From IMG/VR virus record IMGVR_UViG_2698536535_000003: a stretch of 10,462 bases of DNA, one strand, 5' to 3'. Position 1 is the first letter of the stretch; each line of letters begins with the position of its first letter. Below, piece by piece: positions 1-10,462 of the stretch. The position numbers and the translations under genes are program-made. Source of the stretch: a virus. Taxonomy: Duplodnaviria > Heunggongvirae > Uroviricota > Caudoviricetes. The notes under the pieces are model-generated. The model was not told the origin of the DNA and did not search any database. It saw only the letters and a program-made list of their open reading frames with translations.

Positions 1-261
1 GGATTTCCGGGGCGGTTCAAACAGTTCCAGCGTGTTTTCTATTGTGCTGTTTACAGGGGCAACACTCTCCCGTAAGCAATGGTATTCATCTGCAATCTGA
101 TCACGCTTTCGACGTGCCACACGAAGATTACTTGTGTGTAGACTTCTGACAAACGTCCTTTTTCCTTCAAAAAAGGGCTGCATATACACAGGCAGCGTGA
201 TCCTTAAATAGTAGTTACCGTAAGAATCACAGATTAAGTATTGGTTAGGCTTGTATCTCAT
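1..261 (-). CDS. Partial CDS (N-terminal 87 codons, continues past window start); N-terminus resembles the arm-binding domain of tyrosine integrases
   Basis: Hand translation of the minus strand from ATG at 261..259 is open for 87 codons to position 1 (MRYKPNQYLICDSYGNYYLRITLPVYMQPFFEGKRTFVRSLHTSNLRVARRKRDQIADEYHCLRESVAPVNSTIENTLELFEPPRKS). GGAG lies 5 nt upstream of the ATG. The pattern TLP...GKR.F..SL.T.....A parallels the N-terminus of the adjacent integrase ([25 protein letters not shown]). Not in the supplied ORF track. Confidence 0.45.
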   Translation of the reverse strand, partial: MRYKPNQYLICDSYGNYYLRITLPVYMQPFFEGKRTFVRSLHTSNLRVARRKRDQIADEYHCLRESVAPVNSTIENTLELFEPPRKS

Positions 262-403
262 AAAATCTCCGGCTAAAGTGTCGGAGCGTTTGTAATGTGA
301 AAATTGATTGTGACGCATAGAAAATGATGATTTTTCTATAAGATTCAATCAATTAGTAATGGTCGTAGGTGATGGCATTAACACGAGATTAATCGAGTGT
401 TTT

Positions 404-422
404 ACTCCTATTATCGGCACCA
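404..422 (+). other. Putative att core: 19-bp segment matching a tRNA 3' end (acceptor/T-arm ending in CCA), located just beyond the 3' end of int
   Basis: ACTCCTATTATCGGCACCA at 404..422 matches what I recall as the 3' end of tRNA-Thr (thrW), the known P22 attachment target. A second 10-mer GGTCGTAGGT at 361..370 matches the adjacent upstream tRNA segment but is separated by 33 bp of unrelated sequence. No complete tRNA is present in 330..422. Confidence 0.45.
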
Positions 423-436
423 TTTAAATCAATAAG

Positions 437-1600
437 TTACACATCATTAGTACCTTCCTTATTTTTTGACTGGGACAAATTTGGGACCGATGGGTTCAGG
501 ATCGAGTCTATTTGCCGTGCGTGTTCGGTAAGGTGATTAGGTGCAAGGTGAGCATATCGACGAACCATTTCGATAGACTCCCAGCCTCCCATTTCCTGTA
601 ACACTGACAACGGGACTCCGGCTTGAACCAGCCAACTTGCCCAGGTGTGTCTCAAGTCGTGAAATCTGAAATCATCAATACCAGCCCGTCTCAGAGCCGC
701 TTTCCAGGCTGTGTTTGCGTCATACCGCATCTTCCTTACTGTTGGCGCTTTCGTTCCGTCTGGTTTGGTACAGCTTTCCTTGTACACAAATACCCAACGG
801 TGATGATTACCGATTTGTTTTTTCAATACGCGACATGCAGTATCATTCAGCGCAACGCCAATTGCGCGGTTTGATTTACTCTCTTCCGGGTTTATCCATG
901 CCACCCGGCGCTGCATATCTATTTGTTGCCATTCAAGGTTGATGATGTTCGAGCGTCTTAAGCCTGTTGCCAGTGCAAATTCAACAACAGACTTTAATGG
1001 CTCCGGACATTCATCAATCAGCCTTTGTGCTTCATGGGGCTCCAGCCAGCGGATCCGTTTATTCTTTGGTTGAGGCACTTTAATAATTGGTGCCTTATCG
1101 AGCATTTTCCATTCACGCTCTGCGGCTCTTAGCAGGGCCTTTATAAATGAAAGATGCGTAGCCTTCGTTGCAACGGACGCTGGTTTTGGCGTGTATTCTG
1201 GAACAGGTTTCCCTTTTTTTCTGCATGCTTCTGCCCTGAGTTTCCAGTTTTCCTCATGACGCCGGTTCGTCATTTTCTGCATTGCTGAATAAATTTTTGA
1301 TTCAGTAATGTCTCTTAGTTGCATTCCTGCGAAATGTTGAAGCCAGAATCCGATCCGGCTTTTGTCATCGTCCAGTGATTTCTTATGTGCTTTCTCTTCG
1401 AGCCACCTGACACACGCTTCCTCAAACGTCATATCAGGTATTTCACCAAGTTTGCTGACCCGCCATGCTTCAGCCTTTAGCTTGTCATGGAGCTCTGTCG
1501 CCTGCCTTTTGTCCTTTGTTCCAAGAGACTGTTTAAATCTTTTACCGTTCGGCAATGTGAAACTGGCGTACCATATTTCACTTCTGCGGAAGAGTGACAT
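437..1600 (-). CDS. int: Tyrosine-type site-specific integrase (P22 Int-like, 387 aa)
   Basis: ORF-track protein with C-terminal catalytic-region motifs ([10 protein letters not shown]..., [33 protein letters not shown]). From memory it is near-identical over its length to phage P22 Int. ATG at 1600 with AGAGGAAAG upstream; TAA stop at 437..439. Confidence 0.95.
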
Positions 1601-1827
1601 TTTCTTTCCTCTGTTATGCCATCACCCGCGCTCACCTTGATAGTATGCAGCGGAGACTGAAGCGCCGCAATGCAGGCTTGTCGCGTTGTGAGGTAAGGAG
1701 ATTTTGGTTTAGTGGGGTCTTTGCGTGTTGCCTGTAGGCGGCCTGTTCGTATCCAGTTGGTGGCGGTTGGTCTGGATATCTTAAGAAACTGACAGGCCTC
1801 ATCGAGTGTGAGGCTGTATGATTCCAT
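1477..1827 (-). CDS. xis: Excisionase (P22 Xis-like, 116 aa), overlapping the int 5' end
   Basis: Internal ATG at 1827..1825 ([32 protein letters not shown]...) preceded by GAGG with a 5-nt spacer. The track start at 1857 is a GTG with no RBS. The 124-nt overlap with int and the 116-aa length match my memory of P22 xis. Confidence 0.8.
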
Positions 1828-2077
1828 GGTTACCTCTGCTTTTTGAACGCATGTCACGTAACTTCTTAATGTGTTCTGCCGTTTCGATCTCTTCTGCTAT
1901 CCGATCTGCATCAGCTTTATTCACAGGTTCAAAGTCATGATTAAAGCGGAACATGCTGGCGATACATGTTCTGCCTTTTCGGATGTAGTGAACTTTGTTG
2001 TGGGTAGAACGCAGGATTTTGCAGGGAGTGCCGTGGTGGTCGACGTACCAGGTGTTAGGAAAAATGATTCTGAACAT
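1799..2077 (-). CDS. Hypothetical protein (92 aa), early-left accessory gene
   Basis: ATG at 2077..2075 with GAGGTG upstream; co-oriented and tightly packed with flanking genes; overlaps the xis start by 29 nt. No recognisable family. Confidence 0.5.
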   Translation of the reverse strand: MFRIIFPNTWYVDHHGTPCKILRSTHNKVHYIRKGRTCIASMFRFNHDFEPVNKADADRIAEEIETAEHIKKLRDMRSKSRGNHGIIQPHTR

Positions 2078-2124
2078 TTTTACACCTCAGTTGGACGATG
2101 TTGAAATTTGCTGCTTTGAGGCCA

Positions 2125-2343
2125 TCACAGTCCCCATTGTTTGTTCTTAAGTTCGATCTCCTCCTGGCAACTTGCACAAGTCCGACAACCCTGAACAGCC
2201 AGGCGTCTTCGCTCATCTATCGGATCGCCACACTCACAACAATGAGTTGCGGATACAGTCTGGTAGTTCAGACGACGCATTTTTATTGCTGTATTGCGCT
2301 GTAATTCTTCGATTTCTGATGCTGAATCAATGATGTCTGCCAT
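2125..2343 (-). CDS. TraR/DksA-family C4 zinc-finger protein (72 aa)
   Basis: Paired cysteine motifs CCECGDPI and CRTCASC in a roughly 70-aa protein, the size and Cys spacing of TraR-like proteins found in the early-left region of lambdoid phages. ATG at 2343. Confidence 0.7.
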   Translation of the reverse strand: MADIIDSASEIEELQRNTAIKMRRLNYQTVSATHCCECGDPIDERRRLAVQGCRTCASCQEEIELKNKQWGL

Positions 2344-2395
2344 CTTCCATTAATCCCTGAATTGTTGGTTAATACGCTTGAGGATGAATGCGAAC

Positions 2396-2419
2396 AATAA
2401 AAAAGGAGCCTGTAGCTCC
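2396..2419 (-). terminator. Candidate intrinsic terminator (minus strand)
   Basis: Stem GGAGC (2405..2409) / GCTCC (2415..2419) with a 5-nt loop; on the minus-strand RNA it is followed by UUUUUUAUU (plus-strand A-run 2396..2404). Lies between the 2442..2723 gene and the TraR-like gene. Confidence 0.4.
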
Positions 2420-2441
2420 CTGATGATTTTGCTTTTCATGT

Positions 2442-2723
2442 TCACCGTTCCTTAAAGACGCCGTTTAACATGCCGATCGCCAGGCTTAAATGAGTCGGTG
2501 TGAATCCCATCAGCGTTACCGTTTCGCGGTGCTTCTTTAGTACGCTACGGCAAATGTCATCGACGTTTTTATCCGGAAACTGCTGTCTGGCTTTTTTGAT
2601 TTCAGAATTAGCCTGACGGGCAATGCTGCGAAGGGCGTTTTCCTGCTGAGGTGTCATTGAACAAGTCCCATGTCGGCAAGCATAAGCACACAGAATATGA
2701 AGCCCGCTGCCAGAAAAATGCAT
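2442..2723 (-). CDS. Hypothetical protein (start uncertain: TTG 2756, ATG 2723 or ATG 2657)
   Basis: ORF-track frame 2442..2756 begins with TTG (plus-strand caa at 2754..2756). In-frame ATGs at 2723 and 2657, neither with a strong SD. Co-oriented in the early-left operon. Confidence 0.4.
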   Translation of the reverse strand: MHFSGSGLHILCAYACRHGTCSMTPQQENALRSIARQANSEIKKARQQFPDKNVDDICRSVLKKHRETVTLMGFTPTHLSLAIGMLNGVFKER

Positions 2724-2733
2724 TCCGTGGTTG

Positions 2734-3291
2734 TCATGCAGCCTCCCGACGGGCAAGAATCCTTGAGCCGAACGCCATCAACTCTCCACGATCAACGGTC
2801 GTAAAGTGGCAGTGTGTACGGGGGTATGGGTGCCAGATAATGAGCATCGAGCCTTTATTATTTCCACTGACGGGTTTCTCAGTGAGTGGGTTAATAAATG
2901 CCAGTCGTCCTGCCGTGATGAATCTGACCTCACTGGCGGTTTGTATCGCTTCATGAAACCATCCGACAGATGTGTCAGCAGGCAATAACATTACACATCC
3001 CACACTACTGAATTTGTTTTCAGTGGCTGCCTTTTTCACAAAAGGGGAAATATTGCTGTATGGTGGATTCAACCAGACATAACCAGAGGCATATCCCATT
3101 GCTTCAGGCCATGAAGTGGTTAATGTGTTCTGCTCCTGTGAGATAAAAAGCCGACATAGTCGGTTTTTTTCGCTGGCGGCAGCATCAAGTTGAAAAACGA
3201 ACTCTGCATTAAGCGCAGCAAAAATCTCTGGTGGTGTGCGCCAGCTGTCGCGATGTTCGGCAGGAGTATTGCTTCCGGTGAAATCAGTCAT
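2734..3291 (-). CDS. Phage-type DNA N6-adenine methyltransferase (orphan, no cognate restriction enzyme in window)
   Basis: 185-aa product with NPPY catalytic motif (WLNPPYSN) and an N-terminal region (RDSWRTPPEIFAALNAEFVFQLDAAA) typical of small phage Dam-like amino-methyltransferases. ATG at 3291. Confidence 0.8.
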   Translation of the reverse strand: MTDFTGSNTPAEHRDSWRTPPEIFAALNAEFVFQLDAAASEKNRLCRLFISQEQNTLTTSWPEAMGYASGYVWLNPPYSNISPFVKKAATENKFSSVGCVMLLPADTSVGWFHEAIQTASEVRFITAGRLAFINPLTEKPVSGNNKGSMLIIWHPYPRTHCHFTTVDRGELMAFGSRILARREAA

Positions 3292-3445
3292 ACAGCCCCC
3301 GTTTATTATTTATCGCCTCAGCCAGCCGCTGTGCTTTCAGTGGATTTCTGATAACAGAAAGGCCGGGAAATACCCAGCCTCGCTTTGTAACGGAGTAGAT
3401 GAAAGTGATCGCGCCTACCCGGATATTATCGTGAGGATGCGTCAT
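3284..3445 (-). CDS. Small hypothetical protein (53 aa), translationally coupled between exo and the methyltransferase
   Basis: Hand translation from ATG 3445..3443 gives [53 protein letters not shown], stop TGA at 3286..3284. Its ATG overlaps the exo stop (ATGA), and GGGGAG lies 8 nt upstream. Below the length cut-off of the ORF track. Position is analogous to the small orf immediately downstream of exo in lambda. Confidence 0.5.
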
Positions 3446-4122
3446 CGCCATTGCTCCCCAAATACAAAACCAATTTCAGCCAGTGCCACGTCCATTTTTT
3501 CGATGAACTCCGGCACCATCTCGTCAAAATTCGCCATGTACTTTTCATCCCGCTCAACCACGACATAATGCAGGCCTTCACGCTTCATACGCGGGTCATA
3601 GTTGGCAAAGTACCAGGCATCTTTTCGCGTCACCCACATGCTGTACTGCACCTGGGCCATGTAAGCCGACTTTATGGCCTCGAAACCACCGAGCCGGAAC
3701 TTCATGAAATCCCGGGAGGTAAACGGGCATTTCAGTTCAAGGCCATTGCCGTCACTGCATAAACCATCGGGAGAGCAGGCGGTGCGCATACTTTCGTCGC
3801 GATAGATGATCGGGGATTCAATAACATTTACGCCGGAAGTGAACTCAAACAGGGTTCTGGCGTCGTTCTCGTACTGTTTTCCCCAGGCCAGTGCTTTAGC
3901 GTTAACTTCCGGAGCCACACCGGTGCAAACCTCGGCAAGCAGGGTGTGGAAGTAGGACATTTTCATGTCAGGCCACTTCTTTCCTGAGCGGGGCTTTGCT
4001 ATCACGTTGTGAACTTCTGAAGCGGTGATGACGCCGAGCCGTAATTTGTGCCACGCATCATCCCCCTGTTCGACAGCTCTCACGTCGATCCCGGTACGCT
4101 GCAGGATAATGTCCGGTGTCAT
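3442..4122 (-). CDS. exo: Lambda-type 5'-3' exonuclease (Red alpha, 226 aa)
   Basis: Protein begins [40 protein letters not shown] and ends GFVFGEQWR; from memory near-identical to lambda Exo at the same length. ATG at 4122 overlaps the bet stop (ATGA). Confidence 0.97.
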
Positions 4123-4904
4123 GCTGCCACCTTCTGCTCAGTGGCTTTTTGTTTCAGGAATCCAAGAGCTTTCACTGCTTCGGCCTGTGTCAGTTCTGAC
4201 GATGCACGAATGTCGCGGCGAAATATCTGGGAACAGAGCGGCAATAAGTCGTCATCCCATGTTTTATCCAGGGCGATCAGCAGAGTGTTAATCTCCTGCA
4301 TGGTTTCATCGTTAACCGGAGTGATGTCGCGTTCCGGCTGACGTTCTGCAGTGTATGCGGTATTTTCGACAATGCGCTCGGCTTCATCCTTGTCATAGAT
4401 ACCCGCAAATCCGAAGGCCAGACGGGCACACTGAATCATGGCTTTATGCCGTAACATCCGTTTGGGATGCGACTGCCACGGCCCCGTAAATTCTCTGCCT
4501 TCGCGGGTTTTGAATGGTTCGCGGCGGCATTCATCCATCCACTCGGTAACGCAGATCGGATGATTGCGGTCCTTGCGGTAAATCCGGCATGTACAGGATT
4601 CATTGTCCTGCTCAAAGTCCATGCCATCAAACTGCTGGTTTTCATTGATGATGCGGGACCAGCCATCAACGCCCACCACCGGAACGATGCCATTCTGCTT
4701 ATCAGGAAAGGCGTAAATTTCTTTCGTCCATGGATTAAGGCCGTACTGGTTGGCAACGATCAGTAATGCGATGAACTGCGCATCGCTGGCATCACCTTTA
4801 AATGCTGTCTGGCGAAGAGTGGTGATCAGTTCCTGTGGGTCGACAGAATCCATGCCGACACGTTCAGCCTGCTTCCCAGCCAGCGTTGCGAGTGCTGTAC
4901 TCAT
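4119..4904 (-). CDS. bet: Lambda-type single-strand annealing protein (Red beta, 261 aa)
   Basis: Protein begins [11 protein letters not shown] and ends [11 protein letters not shown]; from memory near-identical to lambda Bet at the same length. ATG at 4904. Confidence 0.97.
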
Positions 4905-4909
4905 CCGTT

Positions 4910-5206
4910 TTATACCTCTGAATCAATATCAACCTGATGGTGAGCAATGGTTTCAACCATGTACAGGATGTGTTCTGCCATGCGCTCCTGAAACTCAACA
5001 TCGTCATCAAACGCACGGGTAATGGCTTTTTTGCTGGCCCCGTGGCGTTGCAAATGATCGATGCATAGCGATTCAAACAGGTGCTGGGGCAGGCCTTTTT
5101 CCATGTCGTCTGCCAGTTCTGCCTCTTTCTCTTCACGGGCGATCTGCTGGTAGTGACGCGCCCAGCTCTGAGCCTCAAGACGATCCTGAATGTAATAAGC
5201 GTTCAT
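4910..5206 (-). CDS. gam: Gam, host RecBCD inhibitor, short form only (98 aa)
   Basis: [21 protein letters not shown]...[10 protein letters not shown] matches lambda GamS from memory. ATG at 5206 is preceded by AGGAGG with a 6-nt spacer. The reading frame upstream is closed by an in-frame TAA at 5261..5263 with no intervening start codon, so the longer lambda-style ORF cannot be made here. Confidence 0.95.
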
Positions 5207-5281
5207 GGCTGACCTCCTGAAAATGGCTGTGAAAATATCGCCCGCGAAATGCCAGGCTGATTAGGAAAACAGGAAAGGGGA

Positions 5282-5692
5282 TTAGTGATTTAGGCCGTTG
5301 CCGCGTCCGTCGAGAAAAACTTCCACGAGCAAATCACGGGTATAAGTGCGCTCGATGCCGCGATGCAGATATAGCCGTCCGCGTAAATTAGCTGATGCAG
5401 TCCAGGTACCATCTTTGTGTTTGACCAGCATTCCTGGCATGACCGCACCGCGATTAACGGTCTGCGTTCCGTAATGTTGATGAACCATAAAAACTCCTGC
5501 CCGTAAGCTGGGCTGCTGAACATATATAGACTTCTGCGCGTATTCAGGCGGTGGATGGCCGCCGGTTGTCATAACTAAGCCGCCTCGTTGAAGCGACTGA
5601 GGTATGAAGTGTTGAGTTGATTTCAGCTGGTCACACCGACGTTCACGCGTCCGCTTCACCCCTCGCACTCCCCGGAGCCTGCTGAAATTCAA
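5282..5692 (-). CDS. Hypothetical protein in the first position of the pL operon (N slot); arginine-rich N-terminus; start codon uncertain
   Basis: ORF-track frame starts at a TTG (5692); candidate GTG starts at codons 8 and 11 and an ATG at 5572. N-terminal segment [15 protein letters not shown] is arginine-rich, loosely like ARM motifs of N antiterminators. No family recognised. An alternative-frame ORF (5290..5523) overlaps it. Confidence 0.35.
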
Positions 5693-5710
5693 GCTGCGGA
5701 TCTAAGCGGT

Positions 5711-5760
5711 CATCGCAACGGTGAATCAGGTGGTTGCCGTATCGTTGTGTTGTTGCGATG
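5711..5760. repeat. 9-bp perfect inverted repeat (CATCGCAAC ... GTTGCGATG) with 32-nt spacer in the pL leader region
   Basis: CATCGCAAC at 5711..5719 and its exact reverse complement GTTGCGATG at 5752..5760. Lies between the putative pL and the first early-left ORF. Confidence 0.5.
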
Positions 5761-5766
5761 AATTTA

Positions 5767-5830
5767 TTTAAAACTATAGTTGTTTTATCGTCAACAACAA
5801 AAGTTGTTTTACTGGTTGTTTTAGATATAA
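5767..5830 (-). promoter_or_regulatory. Putative pL promoter with overlapping oL operator half-sites
   Basis: On the minus strand TTGACG (5794..5789), 17-nt spacer, TTAAAT (5772..5767). The region carries repeated GTTGTT/AACAAC half-sites (AGTTGTTttatcgtcAACAAC, AGTTGTTtt, ACTGGTTGTT x2) that match the arms of the oR palindrome at 8424..8448. Confidence 0.4.
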
Positions 5831-5928
5831 CTGGTTGTATTTAGGATGGATTTATTTTGTGACTTGCATCGCATAGCGATAACTGAAGGGATGTCGTGGT
5901 GGTTATTTGAACGGTTTGTGTGATGAGG

Positions 5929-5961
5929 GGAGGCAAAAGAAAACCCGGCACGGTGGCCGGG
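5929..5961 (-). terminator. Intrinsic (rho-independent) terminator closing the repressor-moron operon
   Basis: GC stem CCCGGC (5944..5949) / GCCGGG (5956..5961) with a 6-nt loop; on the minus-strand RNA it is followed by UUUUCUUUUG (plus-strand 5929..5943 is A-rich). Lies 36 nt downstream of the DUF3037-like gene stop. Confidence 0.75.
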
Positions 5962-5996
5962 TTATTAATAAGGAATATCACATACAAAAATAAATT

Positions 5997-6824
5997 TTAA
6001 ACTTGGGGAAGTATTTTTTTTGCAAAATCAATAGTTTCTTTGTGGTTGGATGCAGGTATATGATTTATTTTCTTAGCATCCATAGTTCTCTTTATGATGT
6101 CAATAACTTTGCTTTGGCCTGAGTTTGGTGATTCAGGAGTTTCAATTGTGAATAAAATGTCATCAAGTGAAAGCAGGTTTTCTTCTGCTGCTCGAGTTAT
6201 TCTCATCACCCAAGTATCACTATGCTCCATCATTTTTCCTGGTTCAGCTTGAGTGAATGCCAGAGGTTTGATGGCACATTGGATCCTGTCATGCTTCTTG
6301 GCGACCAATGGCATTGAGAACTTTGCGAAATACCCATCAATGGTTGCTTGTTTGAAGACGTTCTTCAATCCATCTATTCTATCGATACTTCGTTTTAGCT
6401 CTCTGGCTAGAACATCTTCACGGCGCTCTTTTGTGTAGTCAGAGTGGTTTACATATTTATTGTAAATGCGGGCCAGCTCTTCTTTTGGGTTTTCGCTGAG
6501 AATCACTCTCGTAGAACTGAACTGAAAAATTGATTCTTTTTTGTTTGTAAAATATCTGAAGAATTGTGCAAGTTGTTGATGTCCAACAATCTGGGTCGCA
6601 TGCATTTTTGCGAATTGTAGTTCTCTTTGTATTGAGTCTTTTGCTACAGGGAAAATACAATCATCATGGAAAAAATTCTTTACACGAGAGTCATTTCGCT
6701 TTGTGAGCTGGAAATCAAAGTAATTTTCTTTTGGCGCGCACAGAAGTACGCCTATGTTTGCGAACTCTTCAGTCTCCGCATAAGGCGCATAGCGAACGAT
6801 GCTATATAGGCATGGAGTTGTCAT
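5997..6824 (-). CDS. DUF3037-like protein (275 aa), second gene of a two-gene moron
   Basis: Track ORF starts at a TTG (6839); ATG at 6824..6822 overlaps the stop of the upstream gene (ATGA). The N-terminus MTTPCLYSIVRYAPYAETEEFANIGVLL resembles the conserved N-terminal signature I recall for DUF3037-family proteins. GC content is about 33% in sampled 60-nt windows versus about 55% in bet. Confidence 0.7.
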   Translation of the reverse strand: MTTPCLYSIVRYAPYAETEEFANIGVLLCAPKENYFDFQLTKRNDSRVKNFFHDDCIFPVAKDSIQRELQFAKMHATQIVGHQQLAQFFRYFTNKKESIFQFSSTRVILSENPKEELARIYNKYVNHSDYTKERREDVLARELKRSIDRIDGLKNVFKQATIDGYFAKFSMPLVAKKHDRIQCAIKPLAFTQAEPGKMMEHSDTWVMRITRAAEENLLSLDDILFTIETPESPNSGQSKVIDIIKRTMDAKKINHIPASNHKETIDFAKKILPQV

Positions 6825-7570
6825 TCTATTGCGCTCCAAAATTCATCACAATCACCTTTGTCTAGCGTAGTGCAGACAAAAGGTAAAAACTCCTCATCTA
6901 CTATCCACTCTTCTGGAATTTCGTCAAGGATAGCAGGAAGCTTGTGTAAACTGTTAACGACCCTCTGGCGGTACTCTACGCGATCCACTAAATCATATTG
7001 CCATTTGCGGTTACCAGGGCCGTACACGTGCACAGAAAAATCTTCAGGTCCAGCATTCTGATCAAATGAGAGATTATGGTCAATCAGATAATACTTATCG
7101 TTACTGATGTCATAAAGGATGTTAACGTTTCCACCTTTGTCAGTAAGCGTTCTGTCTGCATTTAATATCCATTTATCAAAAACATAGATTAATTTTTGCT
7201 GTTCGACTGGGATGATCGTTTCGTTTCTTGACTGCGTAAACGTTAACGCTATTGCACCGTCAATGAACAATGAAGCAAAGGCATATCCTGTACAAATTTG
7301 TTGCTGCAGATCAGGTGAGTACTCTATAAGTTCCTCTGGCACAAATACGATTTTAAAGTCAGGTAAAGGAAGGCCGATATCATTAGCCAAACATGCCGAA
7401 ATGAACTCAGCTAAGAGATTTTTCGGGGGCATTGATGGTTTTGACTTCAAAACATACAACTGCCCATCATCACATTTGCAAAGAAATGGCTGAGTGGAAC
7501 CTTCATTGATGCGACGTATTACCTCAACGACATTAGGTATTGCACTATTGCTGCTCGCTACGCACTCCAT
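6821..7570 (-). CDS. Atypical protein kinase-fold protein (HipA/PI3-4K-like motifs, 249 aa), first gene of a two-gene moron
   Basis: Track start is a GTG at 7573; the second codon is ATG (7570..7568) with AAGGG 6 nt upstream. Motifs: a nucleotide-binding-like N-terminal segment (INEGSTQPFLCKCDDGQLYVLKSK, with Lys in YVLK), a catalytic-loop-like FDKWILNADRTLTDKGGN, and a downstream LIDHN metal-binding-like segment. Stop TGA at 6823..6821 overlaps the next start. Confidence 0.65.
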   Translation of the reverse strand: MECVASSNSAIPNVVEVIRRINEGSTQPFLCKCDDGQLYVLKSKPSMPPKNLLAEFISACLANDIGLPLPDFKIVFVPEELIEYSPDLQQQICTGYAFASLFIDGAIALTFTQSRNETIIPVEQQKLIYVFDKWILNADRTLTDKGGNVNILYDISNDKYYLIDHNLSFDQNAGPEDFSVHVYGPGNRKWQYDLVDRVEYRQRVVNSLHKLPAILDEIPEEWIVDEEFLPFVCTTLDKGDCDEFWSAIE

Positions 7571-7692
7571 CACTAACCCTTATGTGATTCAAGTCTTCCA
7601 TCTCATTACTCCGCATCTCAAAGAGCGGTTTAACACTGCGTGTTTAAAGAAAAACAACAGGCCTATTGCTGTAACTGTTTTTTAGCCTCACT

Positions 7693-8382
7693 TTAACCAT
7701 GCTTCCTATATGTTTGCGGCATGCTCCCAATAACCTTACCGAAGATGAACACCCGGTTCATCTCGTCTTTCTCGATCGGGTCCCACGGTGAGTAGCTCTT
7801 GTTATCAGAAATAACCAGCAGCTTATCCTTCATCATTTGCAGGCGCTTTACATGGGCGGTGTCGTCATACAGAAACGCATAGATACCATCACCGTCGAAA
7901 GATTTAACCGTGATATCAACGAACAGCAGATCACCTGGTTCGATCGTTCCTGACATGCTGTCACCACGCACGTTAATGATGCGGATATTTTCTGCCTTCC
8001 TACCATCGAACATGTGACGAGCATCGTCAAACGAGTACTCAACCGAGCGTAGAACTTCTACAAACTCACGGTTGATGACTCCCGGCCCGGCACTCACTTC
8101 TATATCAAGAACGTCAATCTTAAAGTATTTGGAATGGCTGACAGTTGATTGTATTGGTTGCACTGTACTGTCTGACATATTTCCAACGCCAGAAGATAAC
8201 CATTCTGCGCGCACACCCAAAGCGTTCGCGATCTCCACGATTTTAGTTGTTTGGTTAGCTTTCCCTGTTTCGATTTTCTGAATAGCAGCTTGGCTAACCC
8301 CGACCAAATCCCCAAGCGCCTTTTGTGTAAGGCCTCGCGCTAATCTGGCTTCTTTAAGTCTTTCTGAGAGTGTTGTTTTCAT
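7693..8382 (-). CDS. cI-type prophage repressor: N-terminal HTH-XRE DNA-binding domain plus C-terminal S24 (LexA-like) autopeptidase domain
   Basis: From ATG at 8382..8380: MKTTLSERLKEARLARGLTQKALGDLVGVSQAAIQKIETGKANQT (HTH), then VRGDSMSGTIEPGDLLFVD (Ser nucleophile) and AHVKRLQMM (catalytic Lys). The track start at 8448 adds 22 N-terminal residues with no support. No SD before the ATG. Confidence 0.85.
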   Translation of the reverse strand: MKTTLSERLKEARLARGLTQKALGDLVGVSQAAIQKIETGKANQTTKIVEIANALGVRAEWLSSGVGNMSDSTVQPIQSTVSHSKYFKIDVLDIEVSAGPGVINREFVEVLRSVEYSFDDARHMFDGRKAENIRIINVRGDSMSGTIEPGDLLFVDITVKSFDGDGIYAFLYDDTAHVKRLQMMKDKLLVISDNKSYSPWDPIEKDEMNRVFIFGKVIGSMPQTYRKHG

Positions 8383-8486
8383 AGACCAAATGTACAACCA
8401 AGGTTTTATTACATCAAACGAAAATGGTTGTTGACTAAAAACAACCATGGTTTTAATCTTGATTCAGATTAACCACGGAGGTTGTT
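8383..8486. promoter_or_regulatory. Divergent immunity control region (oR operators with pRM-like and pR-like promoters)
   Basis: Perfect palindrome ATGGTTGTT-N7-AACAACCAT at 8424..8448 overlaps a plus-strand TTGACT (8431..8436) with a 17-nt spacer to TAATCT (8454..8459), then GGAGG (8477..8481) and the cro ATG at 8487. On the minus strand TTGATG (8417..8412), 17 nt, TACATT (8394..8389) ends 6 nt before the repressor ATG. An additional half-site-like ACAACCAaGGTT sits at 8394..8405. Confidence 0.55.
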
Positions 8487-8717
8487 ATGAACCCAGCAAT
8501 CAAAACAGCGATCAATATCGTTGGTTCACAAAAGAAACTGGGCGATGCCTGCGAAGTTTCACAGCAGGCCGTCTATAAGTGGCTTCACAACAAAGCAAAG
8601 GTATCCCCTGAACATGTCGGCAGCATTGTTACGGCTACTGGTGGAGTTGTGAAGGCATACCAGATTCGCCCGGACCTTCCGAAGTTGTTTCCACACACCG
8701 AAAAGAACGCAGCTTAA
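8487..8717 (+). CDS. Cro-like HTH regulator (YdaS-family-like, 76 aa)
   Basis: Small protein divergent from the repressor and immediately after the operator region; LGDACEVSQQAVYKWL is HTH-like; the C-terminal ATGGVVKAYQIRPDLP resembles YdaS-type Cro proteins as I recall them. Strong RBS. Confidence 0.8.
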   Translation: MNPAIKTAINIVGSQKKLGDACEVSQQAVYKWLHNKAKVSPEHVGSIVTATGGVVKAYQIRPDLPKLFPHTEKNAA

Positions 8718-8729
8718 ATTTCCATTTCA

Positions 8730-8775
8730 CGCTCTTTAACAATAAGCAATCAACTTAACAGACTGATTAACAGTC
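8730..8775 (+). promoter_or_regulatory. Putative nutR-like site: boxA-like CGCTCTTTA plus boxB-like hairpin
   Basis: CGCTCTTTA at 8730..8738 (lambda boxA consensus CGCTCTTA). Perfect hairpin GACTG-ATTAA-CAGTC at 8761..8775 (5-bp stem, 5-nt loop, no U-run after it), in the cro-cII intergenic position where lambda carries nutR. Confidence 0.3.
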
Positions 8776-8798
8776 AATTCAAACTAAAGGAATTAATT

Positions 8799-9338
8799 AT
8801 GCAACCAATTACATACCAACAGACTAGCGGAATTACCCCGGCTGCGCTGATAAATCGTTCTCAAACAAAACAGGCGACAGGCCACGAAAAAATCCGTGAT
8901 GCCGTTCGCGCCTGGTCGGCTGCAGATAATCAGGATGTTGTTGCCGCACTCATTGTGAATGAGTATCGGGAGCAGGGCGGCGGCACCATCGATTTCCCTG
9001 ATGATGTCAGTCGTGCACGCCAGAAGCTGTTCCGCTTCCTCGATAACAAATTCGATTCTGAAAAATACCGAAATAACGTGCATGAACTGACCCCGGCAAT
9101 TCTGGCGGTACTACCGCTGGAATATCGCAGCCACCTGGCTGAGCAGGATAGCTTCATGGCCCGGTTGGCTGAAATGGAAAAGGAACTCAGTGAGGCAAAG
9201 CAGGCGGTCATTCTCAACGCACCACGCCACCAGAAACTGAAGGAAATGAGTGAAGGTATTGTGTCGATGTTTCGTGTGGACCCGGATCTGGCTGGTCCAT
9301 TAATGGCGATGGTTACCACCATGCTGGGGGCAATATGA
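8799..9338 (+). CDS. YdaT-family-like protein occupying the cII position (179 aa)
   Basis: ATG at 8799 with AAGGA upstream. Segments EYREQGGGTIDFP and LTPAILAVLPLEYRSHL resemble YdaT-type proteins as I recall them; follows a YdaS-like cro. No resemblance to lambda CII. Confidence 0.55.
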   Translation: MQPITYQQTSGITPAALINRSQTKQATGHEKIRDAVRAWSAADNQDVVAALIVNEYREQGGGTIDFPDDVSRARQKLFRFLDNKFDSEKYRNNVHELTPAILAVLPLEYRSHLAEQDSFMARLAEMEKELSEAKQAVILNAPRHQKLKEMSEGIVSMFRVDPDLAGPLMAMVTTMLGAI

Positions 9339-9424
9339 CAGATTCAGAAATGGCGAAAGTCGGTCTGCGGGAACAGAACCGACTTTCAGGTGCAAATCGT
9401 AACGCACTCATTGCGGGAGGAATT

Positions 9425-10354
9425 ATGGCAAACACTGCTGAGATATTCAATTTTCCAGTGCCGGATGTGGCACAAAAGGAGCCGCGCGTGGCAGATCTCG
9501 ATGATGGTTATACGCGCATTGCAAATGAGTTGCTGGAAGCTGTAATGCTGGCCGGATTAACACAGCACCAGCTTCTGGTCTTCCTGGCTGTCATGCGCAA
9601 AACATATGGCTTTAATAAAAAACTGGATTGGGTGAGCAACGAGCAACTTTCCGAGTTGACCGGGATATTGCCGCACAAGTGTTCTGCTGCAAAAAGTGTT
9701 CTGGTAAAGCGTGGGATTTTTATTCAGAGCGGGCGGAATATCGGCATTAATAATGTGGTCAGTGAATGGTCAAAATTACCCGAATCAGGTAAGAAAAATA
9801 AAGTTTACCTGAAAGAGGTAAATTTACCTGAATCAGGTAAGAAAAGTTTACCCAAATCAGGTAAAGGCACTTACCCGAATCAGGTAAACACAAAAGACAA
9901 ACTAACAAAAGACAATATAAAACCTTATTCGTCCGAGAATTCTGGCGAATCCTCTGACCTGCCAGAAAACGACCTTCCTGTGGTGAAAGCGGATGCTGCG
10001 ATTCAGAGCGGCAGCAAGTGGGGGACAGCAGAAGACCTGACCGCCGCAGAGTGGATGTTTGACATGGTGAAGACCATCGCGCCATCAGCCAGAAAACCGA
10101 ATTTTGCAGGGTGGGCTAACGATATCCGTCTGATGCGTGAACGTGATGGACGTAACCACCGCGACATGTGTGTACTGTTCCGCTGGGCCTGCCAGGACAA
10201 CTTCTGGTCCGGTAACGTGCTGAGTCCGGCCAAACTCCGCGACAAGTGGACCCAGCTCGAAATCAACCGGAACAAGCAACAGGCTGGCGTGACAGTCGGC
10301 AAACCAAAACTCGACCTGACAAACACTGACTGGATTTACGGGGTGGATCTATGA
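9425..10354 (+). CDS. O: Replication initiator, lambda O-like (origin-binding protein)
   Basis: From ATG 9425 (GGGAGG 4 nt upstream): MANTAEIFNFPV...RVADLDDGYTRIANELLEA...LVFLAVMRKTYGFNKKLDWVSNEQLSELTGILPHKC parallels the lambda O N-terminal domain. The gene contains the iteron array and its stop overlaps the P start (ATGA). The track start at 9335 is probably a 5' over-extension. Confidence 0.88.
   Translation: MANTAEIFNFPVPDVAQKEPRVADLDDGYTRIANELLEAVMLAGLTQHQLLVFLAVMRKTYGFNKKLDWVSNEQLSELTGILPHKCSAAKSVLVKRGIFIQSGRNIGINNVVSEWSKLPESGKKNKVYLKEVNLPESGKKSLPKSGKGTYPNQVNTKDKLTKDNIKPYSSENSGESSDLPENDLPVVKADAAIQSGSKWGTAEDLTAAEWMFDMVKTIAPSARKPNFAGWANDIRLMRERDGRNHRDMCVLFRWACQDNFWSGNVLSPAKLRDKWTQLEINRNKQQAGVTVGKPKLDLTNTDWIYGVDL
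9776..9887. repeat. Replication origin iterons (ori-lambda-like), five 17-bp palindromic repeats followed by an AT-rich segment
   Basis: TTACCCGAATCAGGTAA (9776..9792), degenerate TTACCTGAAAGAGGTAA (9805..9821), TTACCTGAATCAGGTAA (9824..9840), TTACCCAAATCAGGTAA (9848..9864), TTACCCGAATCAGGTAA (9871..9887). Each contains the palindrome TACCNGA-A-TCAGGTA. A-rich tract 9888..9925 follows. All lie in frame within the O-like gene. Confidence 0.85.
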
Positions 10355-10462
10355 AAAACATCGCCGCACAGATGGTTAACTTTGACCGTGAGCAGATGCG
10401 TCGGATCGCCAACAACATGCCGGAACAGTACGACGAAAAGCCACTGAACCGCCCCGGGTTTC
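10351..10462 (+). CDS. P: Replication protein P-like (DnaB helicase loader), 5' partial, continues past window end
   Basis: ATG at 10351 overlapping the O stop; translation MKNIAAQMVNFDREQMRRIANNMPEQYDEKPLNRPG matches the lambda P N-terminus from memory. Confidence 0.9.
   Translation, partial: MKNIAAQMVNFDREQMRRIANNMPEQYDEKPLNRPGF

Follow-up and report, generated by a model that had tools for sequence, protein, structure and literature searches.

The tRNA-Thr gene thrW is a recognised integration hotspot (PMC7545054), and tandem prophages at this gene have been reported for E. coli O157:H7 (PMC9997748). The closest described counterpart of the locus analysed here is the Sp1/Sp2 array of E. 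coli O157:H7 Sakai (the CP-933H/I region in EDL933), which occupies the same site, between proA-thrW and yagP, and has an internal thrW 3' core between its two elements; its map reads thrW, Sp1 (a defective lambdoid prophage with a P22-type int pseudogene converging on the core), core, Sp2 (P4-like), yagP. In E. coli K-12, the thrW-inserted element CP4-6 (intF/ptwF) carries its integrase gene at the far end, with yagP/paoD beyond; intF is encoded on the minus strand, opposite to the tRNA, and is transcribed away from a distal partial thrW copy. The ptwF-intF arrangement has been assigned the 'opposite-divergent' shape, for which autoregulation was predicted since the promoter overlaps the att arm (Panis et al. 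2010, PMC2951348). The third system of relevance is the SfII/P22 integration module, in which int is overlapped by xis and, in single lysogens, is located directly beside thrW.

The stretch of DNA analysed here, 10,462 nucleotides in its full length and referred to as the window, is with a probability of roughly 0.87 a contig with IS1203/IS629-type copies at both ends that spans the internal junction of a tandem integrative-element array located at the tRNA-Thr gene thrW in an E. coli/Shigella-type chromosome. The part left of the att core is the right end of an AT-rich phage-derived island of about 12 kb, whose integrase gene, int_A, is transcribed away from the core; the part on the right is a lambdoid prophage with an SfII/P22-type int that converges on the core. 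At the left edge, the reading frame makes up the beginning of a second integrase gene, which comes from a small phage-like island that adjoins the SfII/P22-type prophage. As tandem elements at thrW have already been documented, the arrangement as such is an ordinary one and belongs to a thoroughly documented class. The features of the window are the following.

1-19, minus strand: left end of an IS (outermost 19 nt of IRL), IS1203/IS629-type, IS3 family; IS body beyond the edge, transposase on the window minus strand
20-261, minus strand: 5' fragment of int_A, codons 1-80 plus 2 nt, encoding a DUF6538 N-terminal, putative arm-binding, domain
262-403, no strand assigned: right arm of the island (attR arm) and, for int_A, the 5' leader with the presumed promoter region
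404-440, plus strand: att core of 37 bp, common to thrW/attB, the island junctions and the phage junction
437-1600, minus strand: SfII/P22-type integrase gene (387 aa; PF00589, 163.5 bits), its stop codon inside the core
1477-1827, minus strand: gene for an Xis-like HTH protein (116 aa; Pfam HTH_17), overlapping the int 5' end
10445-10462, plus strand: right end of an IS of the same type (outermost 18 nt of IRR), within a lambda-P-like gene

The core was delimited by an exact-match scan and an alignment (A1) of six junctions, and it was set to 404-440 because the comparison of these junctions shows identity over that span. Its left part (404-422) represents the last 19 nt of thrW (ACTCCTATTATCGGCACCA), and 423-440 adds 18 nt of downstream identity (TTTAAATCAATAAGTTAC). 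Thus delimited, the core is the stretch shared by both kinds of neighbour: thrW-adjacent prophages match the window from base 404, and identity to the island/host junction of strain EC195 stops at base 440. Two integrase genes in the same orientation on either side of one att core had been described in an earlier note on this DNA, and indeed both are encoded on the minus strand, around 404-440 with the thrW 3' end. The note had taken this layout to mean that a second integrative element abuts the prophage at one and the same tRNA site. This proposal is borne out by the junction in the window, which is an exact hybrid of two single-element junctions:

thrW/lambdoid prophage junction (strain AR_452): thrW...ACCA TTTAAATCAATAAGTTAC, then the phage arm
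island/host junction (EC195): island arm...ACCA TTTAAATCAATAAGTTAC, then host yagP-side sequence
island/phage junction (window): left arm as in EC195, continued by the right arm of AR_452

Both arms were thus recovered from strains lacking one of the two elements, the comparison that the earlier note had recommended. In island-only EC195, the integrase gene, an identical arm and the core border immediately on host yagP'/paoD, and prophage-only AR_452 has proA-thrW-int and a complete lambdoid prophage that is about 98% identical to window 404-10442. An identical SfII-type Int was encountered in 10 further contexts, all next to proA and all of them thrW-adjacent single lysogens only; in every context seen, the right-hand int adjoins the thrW core. 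The hybrid junction itself, searched with a junction-specific query (262-620), is present in 6 of 5,426 complete E. coli genomes, and across strains the island and the prophage vary in their presence independently of each other.

Presence/absence polymorphism bounded by core repeats refutes the notion that window 1-403 is conserved host chromosome beside a secondary attachment site and not a second mobile element. The fixed position of this segment upstream of yagP/paoD in many strains would suit a chromosomal origin, but we consider such an origin scarcely credible: the segment 1-403 is absent where thrW directly abuts the phage int, the K-12 site holds a different element (CP4-6, with an IntF that is 24% identical over 162 aa), and the region is AT-rich, two core copies enclosing phage-like genes and an integrase gene.

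It is likewise highly improbable that the two integrase genes belong to one composite element moving as a unit, instead of reflecting two independent acquisitions. The same island-int junction does recur in the six genomes, and in at least eight more the same int is preceded by a related island that encodes an integrase of 407 aa and is annotated with a major capsid protein, as might be expected of a composite element; yet each half is also found alone, with the boundary precise at the core, and the prophage behind int varies, being degraded in L002 (OZ261667), of 42 kb with a myovirus-type tail in L138 (NZ_CP195467) and lambda-like in the window. In L002, where the junction is the same, full thrW and another core copy are located about 12.4 kb to the left. 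Beyond the prophage, both L138 and L002 contain a third core and then a P4-like element; in L002, this third core has one mismatch and lies ahead of the IS3-disrupted integrase gene of the P4-like element. In 22AR0322, such a triple array has the order island, core, 42-kb prophage, core and P4-like element with Drt3. The P4-like satellites (psu, ogr) in third position, at L138:1-6500 and L002:29600-35800, differ in their cargo: one strain has the antiviral reverse transcriptases Drt3a/Drt3b, the other an RNA-directed DNA polymerase.

The partner island was read in L002 (NZ_OZ261667, positions 8000-20400, about 12.4 kb), where its GC content of 34-47% contrasts with 52-57% in the flanks. Its genes encode a replication-initiator-like HTH protein, a weakly capsid-like protein of 343 aa, a tape-measure-like protein of 613 aa and a Dit-like tail protein, and about 3 kb of the island is ORF-poor; a terminase or portal was not recognised among the ten annotated proteins scanned. 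A related island is located at L136:1-8900 (NZ_CP021722). The left-hand element is a small phage-derived integrative element, a satellite or a remnant, and the thrW-proximal island may represent an uncharacterised satellite family. We regard it as unlikely that the island goes further in defining a new family of AT-rich, thrW-specific phage satellites of about 12 kb with a DUF6538-type integrase, whose adjacency to lambdoid prophages with SfII/P22-type int would then reflect a helper-satellite relation and not just the use of a common hotspot. The island is unlikely to be identical to GI-thrW of the ST131 strain EC958, a possibility that was also considered, as GI-thrW is set apart by its description as a 10.8-kb type I restriction-modification island (PMC3203889).

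The assignment of the edge ORF to the 5' end of a tyrosine-recombinase gene is based on orthology, on a DUF6538 match and on the domains and catalytic motifs of full-length orthologues. The start site given in the earlier note is well placed, with GGAG (the reverse complement of 267-270) 5 nt ahead of the minus-strand ATG at 261; RefSeq uses the same ATG, window position 261 corresponding to L001:12242 in the orthologous integrase CDS of EC195. Window 20-436 is at least 99% identical to genes annotated as 'tyrosine-type recombinase/integrase' in complete E. coli genomes, and at least 80% of window 1-436 is covered in 441 of the 5,426. In the 87-aa translation of the edge frame, residues 15-60 match PF20172 (DUF6538) with 39 bits (Pfam cutoff 27; E 6e-10), and this domain is presumably the one that contacts arm sites. 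Residues 1-80 are identical to those of the full-length orthologues, including the one in L002. Two such orthologues, WP_001269633 and WP_023155333 (both 425 aa, DNA identity at least 99%), comprise DUF6538, Phage_int_SAM_5 and Phage_integrase (PF00589, 63.5 bits) domains and contain the catalytic-type motifs TGMRINE, GKTKAAAR, HSLRHG, LLGHT and FRTYS, which make up a plausible R..K..HxxR..H..Y set. Among 50,697 deposited phage genomes, known relatives of int_A above 29% identity were not found. Orthology to K-12 IntF was also considered and rejected, the limited identity mentioned above being confined to the catalytic domain.

The similarity argument that had motivated the second-integrase call is weak. 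The earlier note had recognised an N-terminal pattern common to both integrases; in a BLASTP comparison the two were not significantly similar (E = 2.8), and the alignment fell on a different stretch. Likewise, the neighbouring P22-type Int scored below threshold against DUF6538 (19.9 bits versus a cutoff of 27; Pfam). At most, the two N-termini share the generic, profile-level likeness of integrase N-domains. The note had furthermore let the ORF run open to the window edge, which is correct insofar as no stop codon occurs down to base 1; the frame, however, stays open because it reads into the IS, and bases 1-19 are IS sequence and not integrase sequence. What survives of the original observation is therefore the ORF with its start and ribosome-binding site and the pair of same-strand integrase genes around the core, to the exclusion of bases 1-19 as integrase and of the N-terminal resemblance.

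The island arm between int_A and the core (262-403) is identical to EC195 L001:12243-12384 and contains an imperfect inverted repeat at 302-354. Two further elements were noticed in this arm, a degenerate thrW-like patch at 353-370 (TTAGTAATG GTCGTAGGT; compare thrW TTCGTAATGCGAAGGTCGTAGGT) and an imperfect 22-bp palindrome at 380-401 (AACACGAGATTAATCGAGTGTT) immediately left of the core; the former could be what is left of a longer tRNA copy, the latter a candidate site for recombinase binding. ARAGORN found no complete tRNA in the window, and Rfam gave a single chance-level match over the window, outside 262-403. A consensus scan of 262-403 yielded no sigma-70 consensus promoter. The int_A promoter would nonetheless have to lie within this att arm, and an int/att layout of this type has been associated with integrase autoregulation (Panis et al. 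2010, PMC2951348).

Both edges of the window are formed by IS terminal inverted repeats starting TGAACCGCCCCGG, placed where target homology breaks. The reverse complement of bases 1-19 is TGAACCGCCCCGGAAATCC and matches L003:2339-2357 at 19 of 19 positions, the start of a complete 1,310-bp IS that includes orfA (108 aa), orfB (296 aa) and, at its right end, the matching repeat; RefSeq names it 'IS3-like element IS1203 family transposase', and it occurs at up to 53 places per genome. IS1203 and IS629 are here taken to be near-identical isoforms. Every E. coli match to the int_A region begins at window base 20, which puts the homology break at 19/20. At the other end, homology to related prophages ends at about 10442-10444 and the IS begins at 10445: TGAACCGCCCCGGGTTTC is the reverse complement of L003:3631-3648 and matches the IRR at 18 of 18 positions, in the same orientation as the left-edge IS. 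Multi-copy IS elements are a typical cause of contig breaks, and more than 120 viral contigs contain the 19-mer TGAACCGCCCCGGAAATCC, very frequently at their ends.

The left-edge IS interrupts int_A after nt 242, inside codon 81, and the one on the right breaks the lambda-P-like gene that starts at 10351, behind its nt 94. Since bases 1-19 are an IS terminal repeat, the int_A copy in the window is an interrupted one, an IS-disrupted pseudogene, and the catalytic domain is not demonstrable in this genome. Assuming the IS sequence of L003, the frame is predicted to end 16 codons into the IS, giving a 96-aa stub with the N-terminal domain only. A product devoid of the catalytic domain, which the earlier note had regarded as speaking against a second integrase, would be expected from this particular copy. 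As a weaker possibility, the 96-aa N-domain stub might still bind arm sites. The predicted fusion protein had no exact match in the protein collection, and the 87-aa fragment matched only other truncated or partial versions there, none of them continuing into the IS. The same collection holds many differently truncated versions of the int_A N-terminus (P0001-P0011, 47-130 aa), some with unrelated fused tails, which suggests that the gene is often disrupted in E. coli populations, some of the truncated proteins being partial calls at contig ends.

The exact IS/int_A junction had no match in viral contigs, species-representative genomes or metagenome contigs. As this junction is without a database match and the sequence left of base 1 lies outside the window, it is from relatives that we infer thrW, the remainder of the island and the int_A 3' part in the source genome; IS-mediated deletion or rearrangement could have removed or displaced them. 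With both int_A and P disrupted by IS copies, the prophage is probably replication-defective, the island can probably not excise unaided, and the array of this genome is therefore probably immobile and decaying.

The 10.4-kb segment is bracketed by IS copies in direct orientation, and this raises the question whether the array was made or imported by homologous recombination (by core or flank exchange after transduction or conjugation, or as a pre-formed array) or by IS-mediated rearrangement, instead of by integration in situ. One study on O157 reports that a second prophage was inserted by homologous recombination with a resident one, at yehV and not at thrW (PMC9997748). For the locus analysed here we nevertheless consider such an origin very unlikely. 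The junction coincides with the att core and either arm is preserved down to the last base, as is characteristic of exchange by an integrase, and the IS insertions are located 140 bp and 10 kb from the core and not at it. According to the preferred reading, successive integration in situ, each element would have entered by tyrosine-recombinase-catalysed site-specific recombination with the thrW 3'-end core, the core being duplicated each time. The phage would most likely have landed at the distal core copy of the island, because the distal junction retains all 37 bp of the match to the phage attachment site, while at the thrW-proximal one the match is limited to the 19 nt of the tRNA and then gives way to diverged sequence that includes a 3-nt indel (in L002, full thrW and then the island-specific arm, ACCA TCAAGAAAATCAATAACTTAG); the reverse order of arrival would lead to the same structure. 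Later, one IS would have entered int_A and another the phage P gene, both insertions being visible in the window at the positions given above.

On the prophage side, the right-hand Int is 100% identical to that of Shigella phage SfII and 89.9% identical to P22 Int. A RefSeq CDS is found at the position equivalent to the Xis-like gene in L123 and L002, and the SfII and P22 records annotate xis there. Further into the prophage, window 5997-7573 (minus strand) contains a two-gene cassette, located beside a cI-like repressor gene (7693-8448), whose products are a HipA_2-type kinase (250 aa; PF20613 at 258 bits) and a 280-aa DUF3037 protein. The pair matches PDC-M66 A/B, one of the candidate defence systems in PADLOC (E 6e-15 and 4e-16). 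A YdaT-toxin-domain protein (179 aa, PF06254) is encoded at 8799-9338, in the cII position between the cro-like and the O-like replication genes.

The main value of these findings lies in annotation, as they place the contig at the island/prophage junction of a thrW array; neither the island nor the prophage in the window should be counted as intact or mobile. They also point to displaced att cores at the ends of resident islands as landing sites, by which multi-element arrays would accumulate at tRNA hotspots.

Seen against the known systems, the terminal repeats at both edges agree exactly with those of IS629/IS1203 (IS3 family), of which 19 and 18 nt are visible in the window, the transposase genes and the target-site duplications, expected to be of 3-4 bp, lying beyond. 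With the SfII/P22 integration module, the window shares the same Int and the overlapping xis; here, however, the partner in recombination would have been a displaced, secondary copy of the attB core, situated where another element ends, and not thrW itself, and the remaining prophage is lambda-like (exo/bet/gam, cI, O, P) instead of SfII- or P22-like. CP4-6 of K-12 has the same topology as the island; its IntF comprises 466 aa and is not an int_A orthologue, and where CP4-6 has a 49-nt exact copy of the thrW 3' part, in the arm of this island the 19-nt core is preceded by no more than a degenerate patch. The array of O157:H7 Sakai, finally, differs in the order and nature of its partners: the lambdoid element is thrW-proximal and the P4-like satellite distal in Sakai, whereas in the window the lambdoid prophage takes the distal position and the proximal one is held by an unrelated 12-kb island with a DUF6538-type integrase.
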